The position numbers and the translations under genes were made by a program. Below the pieces are notes generated by a model, which saw only the letters and a program-made list of their open reading frames with translations, was not told the DNA's origin and made no database searches. This document shows, piece by piece, positions 1,353 to 15,632 of a stretch of 64,000 nucleotides of DNA. The stretch's first letter is position 1; each line of letters begins with the position of its first letter. The stretch is from a virus (taxonomy: Duplodnaviria; Caudoviricetes): positions 96,001-160,000 of IMG/VR virus record IMGVR_UViG_3300035498_000877; one strand, written 5' to 3'.

Positions 1353-3353
1353 TTATTTTAATACTATCTTAACTATGTTATCAGATACTCTTTTAATTAC
1401 TCTATAACCACTATCTGATTTAGTAGCTATTGAATTATCATTACATTTACAATATCCATTTACTTCACATGTACCATCATCATATACAGCAAGTACACCA
1501 AGCATACCAATAGCACTCCATTCTGGTCTATCATCTCTTTGAATATAACCTTTATCTAGATCATAATCAGGATTTACTTTATAGAACTCTACTTCTACTT
1601 CCTGATCTACTTCTTCAATAGTGGTATTACCATTTTCATCTTTAATTTCCTGCGGTACTTTAATAGTTTGCATAGTTTTTTCTTTAATATATGCCCCAAA
1701 TTCATCTTTCATGAATTTACCTTGCCACTCAGTATCAGTATTACCAAGTACACATGGATTAGCAGATACTATTCCTAGTACCCAATCTCCTTCTTTGGCA
1801 AGTACAATTTTATCTTCAGATAATGTTACAAACTTTCCTCTTCTATCTTCATTATCTGGATTACCATCTAACCATTCGAAGTACTCTGCATAGTCAGCAC
1901 CAGTTGCAGAATATGCAGCTTGAGCATATGTCGCTCCATCATAATCGACTCTAAATGCATTACTATCACCAGCTGATGTACCGTTACCAATTACAAATGC
2001 AGTGCCACTAGTATCTTTAATAGTTCCTCCAGTTGCTAATTCTGGATCATTATAATGACCTTGTGCATGTTGATAGTCTTCAGCAATGGTATACCAACCT
2101 TCTGCGTGTGAAACACCGCCATTAGCTTTAGTAGCATATCCTTCTGCATGCGATTCTCCTCCAATTGATTGTGTCCCGTAACCTTCTGCATGCGAGTAAT
2201 TTCCTTTAGCTTTACCAAATCCTTCTGCATGTGAGTAATCACCAGATGCTGTGGTACTATTACCTTCAGCATGCGATCCAGGACCAGATGCAGTAGTATA
2301 ACCACCTTCAGCATGAGAACTATTTCCTGAAGCTACTGTAGTATCACCTTCAGCATGAGAACATAAACCACTGGCAATAGTACTTTCACCCTCAGCATGC
2401 GTACTATCCTTAGTAGCTGATGTAGTATTTCCTTCAGTGTGACTATAAGTACCAGATGCTGTAGTTTTATAACCCTCTGCATGTGATGCAGTACCAGTAG
2501 CAGTAGTACCTTCACCTTCTGCATGTGAGTAATCACCAGATGCACTTACCCAACCACTTTCTTTACCATATTCACATCCTGCGCCCTCGGCATGAGAACA
2601 TGAACCTGTTGCTTCAGTACGATATCCCTCAGCATGAGAGCAAGGATCTATTGTACTGGTATCATATCCTTCAGTATGAGAATAATCACCTGATGCATAA
2701 CTATATCCTTCTGAATGTGAATATTTACCCTTAGCCTCAGAATACAGTATATCTTCAGCACTAGATCCACCATCATCAAGATGTCCACCACCCTCAGCAT
2801 GAGAATAATCACCAGAAGCTTTAGTTAAAGTACCCTCAGCATGAGATCCTTTACCACTAGCTTTAGTACCAGATCCTTCTGCATGTGAGTAATCACCAGA
2901 CGCTTCTACATATATTAGAATTTCATCATTTATATTACGCATATATCCTTCGGCATGGGAACCTTCACCGCCAGCAATTGTATCTGCACCCTCGGCATGA
3001 GAATAATCACCTGATGCTGTAGTATTATTACCTTCAGCAGTAGAACAATCTCCAGCATCTGTTTCTTTTTTTCTTCCAAGATTTATTGAAGCATCACTGT
3101 ATATTGATAGTTTAGCATATTCATCATCAGCTCCAATATTGGTTCTGATATTATCCTTTTCTTCATCAGTAAGTTCTTGTACTTCAGTAGATACTGCTTT
3201 GTAATTCTCCACATTATCCAATCCAATTGTAGATTTAGTAATATTATGTGGATTTAATGTATCAATATGCTCTTGTAATTTATTATCAACATCCTGTTTG
3301 CTTACATCAATTAGAGTCTTTATTGAATTTTCACCAGCATATTTTTTGCTCAT
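1353..3353 (-). CDS. Tail fibre/spike with SHAEG beta-roll repeats and C-terminal peptidase G2-type autocleaving chaperone domain
   Basis: More than 20 copies of a ~14-aa xSHAEGxxTxASG repeat; ADYAEYFEW...GIVS...W..IGMLG C-terminal domain; N-terminal NPHNITKSTIGLDNVEN fibre motif. Confidence 0.8.
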   Translation of the reverse strand: MSKKYAGENSIKTLIDVSKQDVDNKLQEHIDTLNPHNITKSTIGLDNVENYKAVSTEVQELTDEEKDNIRTNIGADDEYAKLSIYSDASINLGRKKETDAGDCSTAEGNNTTASGDYSHAEGADTIAGGEGSHAEGYMRNINDEILIYVEASGDYSHAEGSGTKASGKGSHAEGTLTKASGDYSHAEGGGHLDDGGSSAEDILYSEAKGKYSHSEGYSYASGDYSHTEGYDTSTIDPCSHAEGYRTEATGSCSHAEGAGCEYGKESGWVSASGDYSHAEGEGTTATGTASHAEGYKTTASGTYSHTEGNTTSATKDSTHAEGESTIASGLCSHAEGDTTVASGNSSHAEGGYTTASGPGSHAEGNSTTASGDYSHAEGFGKAKGNYSHAEGYGTQSIGGESHAEGYATKANGGVSHAEGWYTIAEDYQHAQGHYNDPELATGGTIKDTSGTAFVIGNGTSAGDSNAFRVDYDGATYAQAAYSATGADYAEYFEWLDGNPDNEDRRGKFVTLSEDKIVLAKEGDWVLGIVSANPCVLGNTDTEWQGKFMKDEFGAYIKEKTMQTIKVPQEIKDENGNTTIEEVDQEVEVEFYKVNPDYDLDKGYIQRDDRPEWSAIGMLGVLAVYDDGTCEVNGYCKCNDNSIATKSDSGYRVIKRVSDNIVKIVLK

Positions 3354-3413
3354 AATAGTATATCTCCTTTCTAGTATTTATTTTGTGTTATTTAATAACT
3401 AATAGAGCTTTAT
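3346..3413 (-). repeat. Shared fibre-gene leader, copy 1 (68 bp identical to 11715-11782 and 13308-13375)
   Basis: Direct comparison; contains the AGGAG RBS and ATGAGCAA start. Confidence 0.9.
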
Positions 3414-3428
3414 AAAATGGTAAAAAAT

Positions 3429-3456
3429 AAAGAGAGGGATTAGTACCCCTCTCTTT
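3429..3456. terminator. Intrinsic terminator hairpin
   Basis: aaagagaggg-attagtac-ccctctcttt immediately after the 3460-3942 stop; T-run on the minus strand. Confidence 0.75.
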
Positions 3457-10609: not shown

Positions 10610-11389
10610 ATGAGTAAAGGAACAATCAATTTTAAAACAGCGTGCCCCAAATGCGGAACAAAATTAACGATTGATAATGTTAAAAAAGAAGATGTATTGC
10701 CGGCACCAAAACTCAGAAGTGGTCACAAACCAGCTGGTGAATTACTTCTGTACAGAGAAACAACTGAATCAATCAAACAATTTCTGATTGATAAGTGTAG
10801 GGCATATGCCCCTGATATCTCAGTTGAAATATTGACGAGATATAATGAAAAGAAACATGGAAAATCATTTGATCCACACAGATGTTATGCTTATTTCATT
10901 TTAGCAATGACAGCTAATGAAGCATTGACTGCAGAGTCAGATGATATGTATGTACGTATTGGATCTGAAGGAAATGATAATCTTTCATTCATATCTGAAA
11001 TTAAGTATCATATAATCAATAAATATCGCTGGGATAAAAAGTGGCTTTCTGATACATTAAAATCATATGCAGCAATGGAAAAGCTTGAAGCTGCATTAGG
11101 TTTAACACCAGCAATGTTATCTGAGATCAATAAGTTTTCAAATCCTACTATTATTAAATCAAATAATATAGCATGGGTTGAAGTAGCAATACAGGCTGAG
11201 AAAGTTTTGGCTGATATGTTTACTGATACATCAACAAATGAATCAATTCCATTTAAGATTAATGATATTAGACCAATATCAGAAAATAACATTCAGTATG
11301 ATATCTTGGTTGATCCAGATGCTAAGAAGATACTTACACCAGATGATTCTGTTATGTTATTGATTAAGAATAGCATTAAGAATAAATAA
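10610..11389 (+). CDS. Hypothetical protein with N-terminal CPKC motif
   Basis: 259-aa ORF with RBS. Confidence 0.7.
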   Translation: MSKGTINFKTACPKCGTKLTIDNVKKEDVLPAPKLRSGHKPAGELLLYRETTESIKQFLIDKCRAYAPDISVEILTRYNEKKHGKSFDPHRCYAYFILAMTANEALTAESDDMYVRIGSEGNDNLSFISEIKYHIINKYRWDKKWLSDTLKSYAAMEKLEAALGLTPAMLSEINKFSNPTIIKSNNIAWVEVAIQAEKVLADMFTDTSTNESIPFKINDIRPISENNIQYDILVDPDAKKILTPDDSVMLLIKNSIKNK

Positions 11390-11411
11390 TTATTAAAGGA
11401 GATAAACATCA

Positions 11412-11666
11412 ATGGGAAAGACAGAAAAATTAACAGGTAAGGTTAAATGGTTCAATGAGCAGAAAGGATTTGGATACATCACAGCTGATGATGGAACAGA
11501 TTACTTTGTACATCGTTCAGGGATTAAGAAGGCTCATCCAAAGACAATTGTAGTATCAAATCTTGAAAAAGATGATGTTGTAGAATTTACAATTCAGGAT
11601 GCACCAAAGGGACCACAGGCAGTATCTGTTACAGTAGTAGATGATACTGATGAAGCTACAGAATAA
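11412..11666 (+). CDS. cspA: Cold-shock domain protein
   Basis: GKVKWFNEQKGFGYI (RNP1), YFVHRSGI (RNP2), KGPQAVSV. Confidence 0.92.
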   Translation: MGKTEKLTGKVKWFNEQKGFGYITADDGTDYFVHRSGIKKAHPKTIVVSNLEKDDVVEFTIQDAPKGPQAVSVTVVDDTDEATE

Positions 11667-11672
11667 TAATAT

Positions 11673-11698
11673 AAGGGAGGGATACTAATCCCTCTCTT
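11673..11698 (+). terminator. Intrinsic terminator
   Basis: aagggagggat-acta-atccctctctt followed by T-run. Confidence 0.75.
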
Positions 11699-11701
11699 TA
11701 T

Positions 11702-11796
11702 TTTTTACCAATAAATAAAGCTCTATTAGTTATTAAATAACACAAAATAAATACTAGAAAGGAGATATACTATTATGAGCAAGAAGTACTTGGGGG
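11702..11796 (+). repeat. Left arm of perfect 95-bp inverted repeat (leader copy 2)
   Basis: Exact reverse complement of 13294-13388; includes RBS and codons MSKKYLG. Confidence 0.95.
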
Positions 11797-13136
11797 GGGG
11801 TTCATTAAAATCCCTAATACAAACTATATTAACAACATTTCCAACAAGTGAAATTACTGAAGATGAAATAAATGATATGTACTATCCACCAAATGTATAT
11901 GGTTTTAGTATAGATCAAACAGCAACCAACTCAGATAGTGCTATATCATATATTGGGCAGAATGTAAATTATACTGCAGCACAAAAGACAGATGCTTACG
12001 TATTTGATTATGGGGATTGGAAAGATGCATTCTTTATAAAGAATCTTAGACCATGTATGTTGAATTATGATGGTACTGAGGCATATCTATTAGATCCAAA
12101 TGATTATAGTAAGAAATTAGATAGTACTGATTCAGATATAGATAATAGTGATTTTGCTGGAAATGTAATGGTAGGAATACCAAAAGTATATTTTAAGATA
12201 GTTAAAGTGGATGATGATCATATCAATTTTTATTTTTCAGATAAGAAAGTAGATGATAACTATCATTGTTGGGCTCATATAAATAACTATGGTGATGAAG
12301 TACCATATTATTATTTATCAATATATTTTGGGCAACTTATTGATGGAAAAATAAGATCATTTTATAATTCTAATGGACGTGAAACTAATTTTAACTTCGA
12401 TACAGGTATAAATGATTCTGGTATAGTTGATTATTATGAAAAAGGTAACAATATTAAAGATTATGCTATGGCAAATAATATAAATGGTAATAATATTTGG
12501 GGTTTAGAAACATATAGTAGTTGGTTATTAATCACGTTATTGTCTATTTTGATATTTAAGGATTCTGATATATCGGATATATATCGTCCATTTGGTTCAA
12601 CATGCATCTGGGGTAATTATCCAAAACTTATTAATGGATTTTTATTTAATATTCAGAATAGACAATTTCTAGTAAAACTTACATATGGTACTCAAGATGG
12701 TAGTACTGTAGAAGGATATAATTTTGCTGGAGATGGATATATTGAAGGCCCTATATTATCTTCTGCATTTGATCACCAAGATGACTGCAATAATACATAT
12801 TGTACTGCTCATGTTAACACTGACTATGGAGTTGATATAGGAATAACCGGTCGAGTGTCAAAAATGAAATTCACTGAGCAAGGTATTATGTTTCCAGTGG
12901 AAAGTATGCACTTTGAAGATGATACTGCGTATCGTTTTACAATATTTGCAGAATATGGTGATGTGTATGGTGACCCAATTACAGATAGAAATACGTTATA
13001 TTGTCTCGCTAATGGAAATTGCGCACTTAGCAGTAACGAAAAAATACCATATAATATGATATTTATTGGGAGTATATTTACTAATTTTTATTGTAAAACA
13101 TCTTTAATTTGTCTACCAAAAATCCAGACAAAATAA
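11775..13136 (+). CDS. Putative receptor-binding/tail-fibre protein resembling Firmicute phage DGR-target (C-type lectin-like) proteins
   Basis: VYGFSID...FDYGDWKDAFF...RPCMLNYDG...NVMVGIPK...WAH motifs; C-terminal CLPK; same leader and N-terminus (MSKKY) as the 1353-3353 fibre; G9 tract at 11792-11800. Confidence 0.6.
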   Translation: MSKKYLGGGSLKSLIQTILTTFPTSEITEDEINDMYYPPNVYGFSIDQTATNSDSAISYIGQNVNYTAAQKTDAYVFDYGDWKDAFFIKNLRPCMLNYDGTEAYLLDPNDYSKKLDSTDSDIDNSDFAGNVMVGIPKVYFKIVKVDDDHINFYFSDKKVDDNYHCWAHINNYGDEVPYYYLSIYFGQLIDGKIRSFYNSNGRETNFNFDTGINDSGIVDYYEKGNNIKDYAMANNINGNNIWGLETYSSWLLITLLSILIFKDSDISDIYRPFGSTCIWGNYPKLINGFLFNIQNRQFLVKLTYGTQDGSTVEGYNFAGDGYIEGPILSSAFDHQDDCNNTYCTAHVNTDYGVDIGITGRVSKMKFTEQGIMFPVESMHFEDDTAYRFTIFAEYGDVYGDPITDRNTLYCLANGNCALSSNEKIPYNMIFIGSIFTNFYCKTSLICLPKIQTK

Positions 13137-13148
13137 ATAATATAATAT

Positions 13149-13175
13149 TAGAAGAGGGATTTAATCCCTCTTCTA
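13149..13175. terminator. Bidirectional hairpin/terminator
   Basis: tagaagagggatt-t-aatccctcttcta. Confidence 0.8.
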
Positions 13176-13191
13176 TATTTTTATTGATCTA

Positions 13192-13315
13192 TTAACTAAC
13201 TGATTTGGGTAGACATTTAGGAGAGCCGCCGCAGGGCCAGCCCGAGCTAGAAACCACAACACCGAGAACCACGCACAACAAGCCCACACGACGCCCCCAA
13301 GTACTTCTTGCTCAT
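13192..13315 (-). pseudogene. Internally deleted fibre-gene remnant: MSKKYLG start fused out of frame to a DGR-VR-like 3' end
   Basis: ATG 13315 gives a 22-aa peptide; the shifted frame reads GRRVGLLCVVLGVVVSSSGWPCGGSPKCLPKSVS*; 1 A in 83 nt on the coding strand. Confidence 0.65.
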
Positions 13316-13388
13316 AATAGTATATCTCCTTTCTAGTATTTATTTTGTGTTATTTAATAACTAATAGAGCTTTATTTATTGGTAAAAA
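13294..13388 (-). repeat. Right arm of perfect 95-bp inverted repeat (leader copy 3)
   Basis: Exact reverse complement of 11702-11796. Confidence 0.95.
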
Positions 13389-13472
13389 TGAACATTTTTT
13401 GGTTATATATTTTTAATTTAAATGACCAACATATTTATCAATTCAATATTAATAAAATTGGAGGAAGTAGAA

Positions 13473-15632
13473 ATGAGTGAATATGAAGTTTATAATTTAC
13501 CAATAATAAGAACTGTTGAAGATTGCGAAAGAGAATTTCCAGATGTGTATATAATATCTAGATTTGACACATATGAAAAATTCGATGATTTTTATTACAA
13601 GATATACTATGCAATATGTGCATGTGCAGAAATTAAAGCATGTCTTAGTTACAAAATCAAATTTAAATTTTATCCAGAAGATGAAATTATCTATGAATTA
13701 TCTATGCCAAAATTATTATTAAATATGAATTCATGGCGTCCATTAATCGAATTAAATACCATTCAAGATCACTATATTAAAAAGATAGAAGTATTAGATG
13801 AATCATATATTGTGGGTACAATGATGTCTAATAAATTACGTGTAGGGTTAGAGTCAAAAGTAATGAATGTATTAAGTGATTATGGTATTACATTTGAAAG
13901 AATATCTGAATTGCTTAAAGAATTGATTGAGAGATATCAACAAGCATCAGTAGAATTTGCATTAAGCTCTAAGGCAGCAATCATGACATATGAAAGTATA
14001 TTCCTCAATGACTATAGAAACTCTGAAAAGATTAGGGAACTAAATAATACTAAGATAAGCCAGGAATTACAGACATCTGAAGTTGAAGAAGTATTAAATA
14101 AGAAAACAGCTGAACTAATCACTGAGATGGGTAAGACAAAGAATCCAATATGGTATGTATCTAAAGCTGGTAATCATATTAAAGAGAAACAGGTACAGGA
14201 ATTATTTATATCTTATGGACAGATACCAAATGTAGATGGTAATGTTATTCCATATACAATGCAGGGAAATGGATTTTCTACTGGATATATTGATCCAGCT
14301 ACATATTATGTTGCAGCTACAGGTGCTCGATTATCTAATATTATGAATAAAGCTCACATGGGTGAAGCTGGATATCTATCACGTAACCTTATATTGGCAT
14401 CTCGTACTATGACATTATCTCATACTGTATTTGATTGCGGAACTAAGCATCTATTGAAACTCCATGTTACTGATAGTGCATTTCTTCATAGATTGGAAAA
14501 CAAATGGATCACAGAAACTCAAGGTGGTAAACTAGAATTATGCCACTATGAAAAACATAAATATCTTATTGGAAAAGATATCTATGTTAGATCACTTGTA
14601 ACATGTGCTGGAGGAAATGAAGTATGCCATATGTGTTATGGTGGCGATGCTAAACTAGTAATGAATATGCCTGGTATGGCTATATTTAATACTGAAGTAT
14701 ATTCAGAACCAGTAGGTCAGAATATCCTATCAACAAAACATCTTCTATATACAGCTGCAAATAAGATTACATTTAGTGATTCATTTAATAAATATTTTAA
14801 GTTCAATGCAGGTGATATTTATCTCAAAGATAAAGATGATTGGGATTTAGATGTTCCATTCGATCAATTATACATTAGAATAGAAGAAGGTAATGTGGTA
14901 TCAGTTAATAATAATGATATGGCTGAATATAATACCTTTGGTAATAATATTGAAAGCCCATTATTTATATATAATAATAGGACTAATGAATATGATAAAA
15001 TAGAGATTATTAATTATGAATCAATGTTTATTGATTCTGAATCTATGAGATCATTTAAATTAGTATTGGATAAGACTAATGGAAAGAAATATTATCAAAT
15101 ATCATTAGTTTCATTATCATCTGATCTTGAAGGAAGATTGATGTCAATTGATATTAAGAATAATGGATTAACTGATAATCTGTATATGATTATGGATCTT
15201 ATCAATAAGAATGCTAGAAAGTATACTGATTATAATCAGTTAGCACAAGACTTCTTTGAGAGTATGATTAAAGCTAATATTAAATGTAGACATGTGCAAG
15301 TAGAAGTCATCTTAAATAGACTGATTAGAGATACTGATAATATCTATAAGAGACCTGACTTTACTAAGTTTGAAAATCCTAAATATCAGATATTAAATCT
15401 AAATCAAGCATTATTAAATACAGATGCACCTACTATTGGATTATCATATCAGGAAGTTAAACGACAAATATTGTCAGATGCATTGTATGAAGATAAGAAT
15501 GGATCTTCATACCTCGATCCATTATACGCAAACAAAGTAAGTACTAAACATCTCAAAGAATTAATTGCTAAAGTAGCAGAAAGAAAGAGGAGAGAAAAGG
15601 ATGAACGAGAACGAAGAGAGCAAGAGGAGTAA
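13473..15632 (+). CDS. rpoC: Second RNA polymerase beta'-like C-terminal subunit; probably non-virion RNAP
   Basis: ATG 13473 after GGAGG; GARLS...EAGYLSRNL (bridge helix), DCGT, RSLVTC, CHMCYG, EPVGQNILSTKH (trigger loop) and HVQVEVILNRL. Confidence 0.88.
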   Translation: MSEYEVYNLPIIRTVEDCEREFPDVYIISRFDTYEKFDDFYYKIYYAICACAEIKACLSYKIKFKFYPEDEIIYELSMPKLLLNMNSWRPLIELNTIQDHYIKKIEVLDESYIVGTMMSNKLRVGLESKVMNVLSDYGITFERISELLKELIERYQQASVEFALSSKAAIMTYESIFLNDYRNSEKIRELNNTKISQELQTSEVEEVLNKKTAELITEMGKTKNPIWYVSKAGNHIKEKQVQELFISYGQIPNVDGNVIPYTMQGNGFSTGYIDPATYYVAATGARLSNIMNKAHMGEAGYLSRNLILASRTMTLSHTVFDCGTKHLLKLHVTDSAFLHRLENKWITETQGGKLELCHYEKHKYLIGKDIYVRSLVTCAGGNEVCHMCYGGDAKLVMNMPGMAIFNTEVYSEPVGQNILSTKHLLYTAANKITFSDSFNKYFKFNAGDIYLKDKDDWDLDVPFDQLYIRIEEGNVVSVNNNDMAEYNTFGNNIESPLFIYNNRTNEYDKIEIINYESMFIDSESMRSFKLVLDKTNGKKYYQISLVSLSSDLEGRLMSIDIKNNGLTDNLYMIMDLINKNARKYTDYNQLAQDFFESMIKANIKCRHVQVEVILNRLIRDTDNIYKRPDFTKFENPKYQILNLNQALLNTDAPTIGLSYQEVKRQILSDALYEDKNGSSYLDPLYANKVSTKHLKELIAKVAERKRREKDERERREQEE

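Follow-up and report, generated by a model that had tools for sequence, protein, structure and literature searches.

An almost adenine-free island in a jumbo phage genome is likely what remains of a remote second DGR target

Results

A composition outlier converges on a tail-protein gene

The stretch analyzed here (the window) comprises 64,000 nt and corresponds to bases 96,001–160,000 of the 289,234-bp IMG/VR record IMGVR_UViG_3300035498_000877, a metagenomic assembly with a base composition of 35.7% A, 34.5% T, and ~30% GC. At the locus of interest, a 453-aa tail-protein gene on the plus strand faces a short GC-rich island on the minus strand, and split multisubunit RNA-polymerase genes flank the region on both sides (Table 1). 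Read on the minus strand from 13315 to 13192, the island begins with ATG AGC AAG AAG TAC TTG, continues through a run of five G residues into a GC-rich stretch with one A, and ends in ...GGC GGC TCT CCT AAA TGT CTA CCC AAA TCA GTT AGT TAA. A sequence-only reading of the window had reported a single A on this strand in the 83 nt at 13219–13301, within an AT-rich genome, and a recount gives the same value: the plus strand holds 1 T, 28 A, 34 C, and 20 G over this interval (65% GC), and the binomial probability of one T or fewer in these 83 nt is 2.6e-14. When all 289,234 bp were scanned, 83-nt intervals with at most three T residues were found only at genome 67997–68079 and 109217–109305, and a GC content of 58% or more in 100 nt only at genome 67989–68120 and 109196–109322. 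The two composition outliers of the genome are the cis variable region of a DGR (VR1, described below) and the island.

The coding content of the island is that of a gene lacking its body. The frame given in the sequence-only reading, GRRVGLLCVVLGVVVSSSGWPCGGSPKCLPKSVS followed by a stop codon, is correct upon re-reading. Both resemblances to the facing gene that had been pointed out are also present: the CLPK end is common to the two, with the 453-aa gene terminating in ...CLPKIQTK-stop, and a fibre-gene start is fused to the island, the ATG at 13315–13313 opening the same MSKKYLG start as in the 453-aa gene. The remnant amounts to seven start codons and 33 C-terminal codons that are out of frame with each other. 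The ATG frame holds a single ORF, and the frame of the variable region could be restored by G4, G7, or G10 at the G5 run. An exact look-up of the small ORFs over the island in a protein collection returned none of them.

Table 1 Features of the candidate relic and of the DGR cassette upstream. Positions refer to the window unless marked as genome.
Feature	Position	Strand	Description
453-aa tail-protein paralog (phrog_5302)	11775–13136	+	G9 tract at 11792–11800; C terminus AT-rich, no TR match
Left arm of inverted repeat	11702–11796	+	same family 5' module as the right arm, in front of the 453-aa gene
Bidirectional intrinsic-terminator hairpin	13149–13175		12-bp stem, z = -4; serves the relic and the convergent 453-aa gene
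Family-type 3' coding end	13192–13215	-	CLPKSVS and stop; beyond the TR homology; resembles the VR1 flank (IMH side), not the TR flank
Relic VR2	13216–13290	-	75 nt, homologous to the 3' two-thirds of the TR; 83–85% identical to TR and VR1
Only ORF of the ATG frame	13247–13315	-	22 aa, MSKKYLGASCGLVVRGSRCCGF and stop; out of frame with the VR frame
Putative deletion junction	13291–13298	-	G5 run at 13294–13298 plus ambiguous CGT at 13291–13293; ~1.2 kb of gene body apparently missing
Right arm of perfect 95-nt inverted repeat	13294–13388	-	family promoter/leader/RBS/ATG module; ATG at 13315–13313, MSKKYLG
VR1	genome 67,994–68,104	-	last 37 codons ahead of the KCLPKKTA-stop end of the 507-aa ORF
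TR	genome 67,376–67,486 (L005 5377–5487)	-	111 nt
RT gene	genome 66,036–67,199	-	387 aa; only RT gene in the genome

An intact DGR cassette lies 41 kb upstream

The sequence-only reading had predicted that a TR and an RT reside elsewhere in the genome, and both were found ~41 kb upstream of the island. With the island as query, the phage's own genome yielded two more copies at 83–84% identity (genome 67,376–67,451 and 67,982–68,069), both of which the RT gene adjoins. The cassette (locus L005, genome 62,000–72,000) is read from the minus strand in the order 507-aa target, VR1, spacer, TR, and RT, and its target gene is a paralog of the 453-aa gene of the window; five contigs that encode the 507-aa target are on record. 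VR1 differs from the TR at 14 of 23 adenines and at none of the 88 other bases, so that the mismatches are confined to template adenines, and it sits at the 3' end of the target ORF, as in a DGR TR/VR pair. The 507-nt spacer between VR1 and TR is AT-rich and without a plausible ORF, and no ORF of 60 aa or more was found between target and RT.

The RT carries LGFFTSQ and FMDD motifs and matches PF00078 (E 2e-18 to 8.6e-17) and phrog_1423 (2.5e-94). Its best full-length PDB relative is the 328-aa RT 8ub7_A (E 1.9e-28), which we take to be the Bordetella phage bRT. A search of the genome for Avd (PF05635) gave no match at E<=1. The Avd accessory protein is present in many DGRs but not in all, and accessory-free layouts have been described; Avd is therefore not treated as defining here. 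The expectation that a genome search would turn up an RT or Avd, together with a template differing from the island only at A positions, was thus borne out for the RT and the TR but not for Avd, and the island and TR differ at five non-A bases as well. LGFFTSQ conforms to the signature motif of DGR RTs, [I/V/L]GxxxSQ in domain 4 (PMC3521204, PMC7826257). Directly upstream of the DGR target lies a 746-aa radical-SAM/SPASM-like ORF with an apparent intein-like insertion (L005 7565–9805; genome 69564–71804, minus strand).

A tail-protein family shares a start module and poly-G tracts

Using tblastn, six body paralogs of the 507-aa target were identified at 21.4, 68–69.5, 107.8, 168, 281.7, and 288–289 kb of the genome, along with further genes that match this family in the N-terminal module only. 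The family paralogs match phrog_5302, 'tail protein'. The 95-nt module that forms the inverted repeat is 100% identical in the relic, the 453-aa gene, and a gene at genome 281.6 kb, and 95–96% identical at two more genes. Its identical occurrence in front of the 281.6-kb paralog identifies it as a family expression module and not a duplication private to this locus. At the DNA level, only VR1 and the island resemble the TR; the C termini of the other family members are homologous as protein but AT-rich and full of adenines, and the 453-aa gene is classed as a non-diversified member.

The junction of the island falls within a second feature of the family. Among G and C homopolymers of 8 nt or longer, the 289-kb genome holds only five G9–G11 tracts, all at codons 6–9 of MS(N)KKYLGGG... 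tail-protein genes (window 11792–11800 and genome 21379, 95608, 260844, and 281615, three of them G9, one G10, and one G11). The reading frame is kept across two of these tracts (428 aa and 453 aa) and lost at the other three, which are followed by long ORFs of 559, 425, and 420 aa, a pattern that looks like slipped-strand phase variation of fibre paralogs. The G5 run of the relic occupies the same tract position, where the intact paralogs have G9–G11.

Three members or partial members of the family were also noted. A 675-aa ORF (genome 97353–99377, minus strand) has the family leader and MSKKY start at window 3123–3455, in a module that is 94% identical and without poly-G; its body is unrelated, with long G/S/H/A/E-rich repeats (SHAEG-type) and a different C-terminal domain, and the shared expression module is thus attached to different bodies. 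The 168-kb paralog (genome 167661–169189) is apparently split, as a frameshift or as two ORFs: a 99-aa N-terminal frame stops at 167960, and the body is read in a different frame from 167951 onward. The paralog at genome 287934–289232 runs off the linear record, with its 5' part cut at base 289,232, so the record ends fall inside a fibre gene.

To the fold of the 507-aa target there is a single lead. No sequence matches were found in Pfam, NCBIfam, or PDB, a PDB profile search was empty, and the AlphaFold models (pLDDT 50 and 38) were too poor for a fold search. In an Atlas cluster, 12% of members carry FGE-sulfatase, a weak signal and the sole one that points toward a C-type lectin/FGE-sulfatase fold.

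The island is substituted at every template adenine

To compare the island with the TR and VR1, the sequences were anchored at their shared CGGCGGCTCTCCTAAA and aligned without gaps over the last 75 nt, and adenine substitution was tested on the 71-nt core of this alignment. All eight TR adenines in the core are replaced in the island, against 5 of the 63 other bases (Fisher p=1.2e-7). The island therefore has the homology to the TR with adenine substitutions that is expected of a VR, and its earlier description as a heavily diversified DGR target agrees with this count. With 13 differences from the TR, it is a copy of neither TR nor VR1, and only one of the eight substitution outcomes is common to the island and VR1, from which it follows that the island was diversified independently. 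If misincorporation proceeds at ~52% per site as in BPP-1 (PMC7826257), substitution at eight of eight sites is on the high side. The composition of the island is a consequence of the same pattern: the TR backbone has no A outside the variable codons, and each variable A is now G, C, or T. The lone A of the island lies in CTAGC, at a column where related TRs carry adenine.

In other respects the island departs from an active VR. Five non-A mismatches to the TR (TTG for GTG, GG for TC, T for G, and A for G) are spread along it, and two more are located at the junction edge; VR1 has none, as is expected of a VR that the current TR keeps rewriting. The island is also not situated at the 3' end of an intact target ORF.

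On the 3' side, the GC-rich element CGGCGGCTCTCCTAAA is identical in TR, VR1, and island. In the 12 nt that follow it, the island is identical to VR1 at 10 positions and has no match to the TR. The corresponding flanks are TGTCTACCCAAA in the island and TGTTTACCTAAA in VR1, versus AATCACAAG in the TR, and the paralogs end in KCLPK(L/V)xS-stop. The island is thus predicted to carry an IMH-type 3' element, composed of a GC-rich block in common with the TR and then a VR-specific flank.

A hairpin downstream had been taken as a further DGR sign in the sequence-only reading. The hairpin exists (12 pairs, 5 of them GC, with a 3-nt loop, AT-containing, and ~40–50 nt from the VR), but it is the generic terminator of the genome: the same motif follows other family genes and ~25 other genes, and it was rejected as DGR-specific evidence. 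The stereotyped form, GAGGGAT...ATCCCTC and then a T-run, is seen at window 11673–11698 and 13149–13175 and at ~25 other genome sites, and is part of the family modules. In BPP-1, the hairpin has a 7–10-bp GC-rich stem and a GRNA loop and lies within 4–34 bp, compared with the 12-bp stem and 3-nt loop of the relic. As the hairpin of VR1 itself likewise departs from this BPP-1 rule, the hairpin is uninformative here.

Several other identities were considered for the island and set aside. It is not an RNA gene, as no significant fold was found for the island alone (z=0.01); an Rfam scan of window 11000–14000 gave just sub-threshold sraA matches, on the terminator. It is without adenines and was rejected as a second TR, and an A-to-G editing footprint of paralog sequence was rejected for want of any match.

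Four of five non-adenine mismatches coincide with ancestral adenines

To place the five non-A mismatches, the phage TR was compared with those of 19 related cassettes, which share the layout VR, ~200-nt spacer, TR, and RT and the same TR length, and whose RTs are 31–44% identical. These comprise 17 distinct TRs that align without gaps to the phage TR over 107 nt. The related TRs have a conserved adenine pattern, ...AAT CTG AAC AAT ... TCG AAT ... AAC ... AAC AAT, and at the same columns the phage TR reads GAT CTC TCT GGT ... TCT GAC ... AAC ... AAC TAC. Four of the five non-A mismatches of the relic fall in columns where 88–100% of the 17 distinct related TRs have A (Fisher p=2.8e-4; seven such lost-A columns are present among the 63 non-A core positions of the phage TR). 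This coincidence points to an older TR, richer in A, as the template of the relic. In each of the remaining three lost-A columns, relic and phage TR agree in their non-A base, which ties the relic to this TR lineage and not to a foreign cassette. The G/T mismatch at GTG/TTG and the junction-edge CGT are not accounted for by ancestral adenines.

The phage TR has the fewest adenines of the 18 distinct TRs (20 in 107 nt versus 21–28 in the others) and also the fewest AAY triplets (6 versus 7–10). Together with the seven lost-A columns, these values suggest that the set of codons this DGR can diversify is shrinking. Given its adenine bias, the change resembles mutagenesis of template adenines or conversion of the TR by VR sequence. 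It is quite possible, and proposed here tentatively, that the relic is a dated snapshot, and that since it was taken four adenine positions of the TR, and no more than one further position, have changed by adenine mutagenesis of the template, via VR1-to-TR gene conversion or cDNA mis-homing into the TR.

Discussion

Proposed history of the relic

Beside its cis target, the phage DGR likely had a remote second one, of which the island is the fossil and which is now a pseudogene. At least six tail-protein paralogs of the phage have in common a promoter/start module with poly-G and a ...KCLPKxxS-stop end followed by a terminator, and one of them, 41 kb upstream, is the cis target in the target-VR1-TR-RT cassette. 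In the history that we propose, cDNA from the same TR lineage may also have acted in trans and rewritten another paralog, which was convergent with the 453-aa gene; such rewriting would give the G/C/T-rich TR backbone, the non-A base at each template adenine, and the substitutions unlike those of VR1. Later, an internal deletion of ~1.2 kb could have joined the poly-G tract (codons 6–9) to the middle of the VR and left behind the 5' module, 75 nt of VR, the 3' end, and the terminator, out of frame and presumably a pseudogene. After the last writing of the relic, the TR would have lost at least four adenines, and VR1 would have followed the new TR while the relic did not. The relic is probably no longer rewritten over its full length by the present TR, as is argued by the five non-A mismatches that remain in it and that are absent from VR1.

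That the middle of the target was deleted at the G-run, as the sequence-only reading had proposed, is in line with the retained family-type 5' module and 3' end; the missing body is deduced from the paralogs. The intact gene that was to be sought in related phages was not found. A megablast search of phage records for close relatives gave none, and pattern scans of viral and metagenome contigs gave chance matches or nothing. Relatives reached through the neighboring RNAP gene (69–74% aa identity) have no fibre gene at the position of the relic, and so provided no intact ortholog. The C-terminal end of such an ortholog would read ...GGSPKCLPKSVS.

Alternative explanations

The evidence that identifies the island as a VR also bears on whether it is still in use. 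If the relic were a live trans target, cDNA from the TR would keep rewriting at least its 3' part even though no fibre is encoded. The identity of CGGCGGCTCTCCTAAA with TR and VR1, the VR1-like flank next to it, and the non-A base at every former adenine site are all compatible with such activity. The exact-match blocks with the TR (16, 10, 10, and 9 nt) likewise exceed the 8-bp minimum for 5' cDNA integration in BPP-1 (PMC3240598), and on the 3' side of the last non-A mismatch there are five former adenine sites, as partial homing over the last ~30 nt would allow. Full-length homing from the present TR would, however, erase the five non-A mismatches along the 75 nt, the nearest of which is just ~32 nt from the GC element, and no selective benefit of the 22-aa out-of-frame product is visible. 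Continued rewriting is therefore considered unlikely. We give still less credence to a junction made by the retroelement itself, in which the RT or cDNA switched to or annealed at the 5' poly-G and the integrated cDNA replaced the gene body. The junction does lie exactly in the poly-G tract and inside the VR, and short identity suffices for 5' cDNA integration, which can also make use of cryptic sites within truncated VRs (PMC3240598). The product of such an event would, though, be the same as that of replication slippage or a microhomology deletion at a hypermutable G tract; moreover, the TR-derived part holds pre-erosion TR information, and thus does not date the junction to a homing round.

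Two further explanations question the locus as assembled or its orientation. A chimeric join at poly-G, or a wrong path through the repeated 5' module, could have produced a false mini-gene in what is a metagenomic assembly with at least four near-identical copies of the module and with poly-G runs that are error-prone in sequencing. Against such an artefact, a k-mer assembler cannot link the G5 run to the middle of the VR without spanning reads, the sequence on either side (453-aa gene terminator, RNAP gene) is unique, and the VR part, which is unlike VR1 and TR (13 differences) and has its own family-type 3' end and spacer, requires a real second locus in any case; we regard an artefact as improbable. 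Least credible is an inverton- or shufflon-like switch, in which the perfect 95-nt inverted repeats that flank the 453-aa gene and the relic would make the 1.5-kb segment between them invertible, exchanging fibre gene and VR cassette. The repeat holds the leader, RBS, and ATG, so inversion alters nothing downstream, and genome 281.6 kb has a copy of these 95 nt that is just as identical. Searches of the genome for a serine or tyrosine recombinase (PF00239, PF00589) found none, and a site-specific invertible segment of the Gin/Hin/shufflon type was accordingly rejected: its inverted repeat is present, but its recombinase is absent and its repeat carries start signals. The reading of the island as the fossil of a remote DGR target is the one carried forward here.

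Relation to known systems

Remote and multiple targets are established features of DGRs. In the DiGReF survey (Schillinger et al. 2012, PMC3521204), several VRs in paralogous targets are recorded for about one DGR in seven, remote targets lie up to >370 kb away with non-diversified paralogs alongside, VRs with B-to-N mutations are taken as inactivated, and one VR (Pelodictyon) is outside any ORF. Remote VRs are searched for routinely (DGRscan-remote option of myDGR, PMC6602519), and DGRs are very common in gut phages (PMC8241571). Multi-VR, remote-target, and out-of-ORF VRs are therefore already documented, and the relic fits these precedents. Like the multi-VR DGRs of the survey, the phage has one RT and TR, paralogous and remote targets, non-diversified paralogs, and A substitutions particular to each VR. 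It differs from them in that its second target has been reduced to a pseudogene made up of 5' module, two-thirds of a VR, and 3' end, with non-A mismatches, which the survey treats as lost activity (PMC3521204), and in that the phage itself is 289 kb in size and encodes its own RNA polymerase. We found no description of such a relic anatomy (5' module, poly-G junction, and two-thirds of a VR) or of its use as a time stamp for template erosion.

In common with the BPP-1 DGR (mtd VR, TR, brt; Guo et al. 2011, PMC3240598), the phage shows adenine-specific TR-to-VR transfer at the 3' end of a tail-fibre-type gene and a GC-rich VR 3' element shared with the TR, beyond which come a VR-specific flank and then an inverted repeat. 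In contrast to BPP-1, no Avd was detected in the phage genome and the RT is only distantly related. The poly-G tracts bring to mind a different system. Sorensen et al., in Cell Rep in 2021, are said to have described hypermutable poly-G tracts in receptor-binding-protein genes of Campylobacter phages. The family studied here is similar in that the tracts lie in fibre genes, vary in length and frame between copies, and include the position of the relic junction; it differs in that the relic's tract (G5) would be a deletion endpoint and not an on/off switch. Poly-G tracts of Campylobacter phage receptor-binding-protein genes are mentioned in PMC10877375.

Implications

The composition anomaly from which this analysis set out is explained as the footprint of a known mechanism. 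Three means of diversification are layered upon a single tail-protein family in the jumbo phage: paralogy, poly-G tracts, and a DGR that formerly had at least two targets. Since a dead VR stays frozen at its last rewriting, comparison with the live TR and with related TRs reveals change in the template, a question that is rarely accessible for DGRs. In this phage, the template appears to have lost adenines and, with them, diversification capacity. If this reading is true, the TR is not immutable, its erosion would progressively reduce the set of diversifiable codons, and orphaned VR relics could serve to trace how DGR templates have changed and decayed over time.
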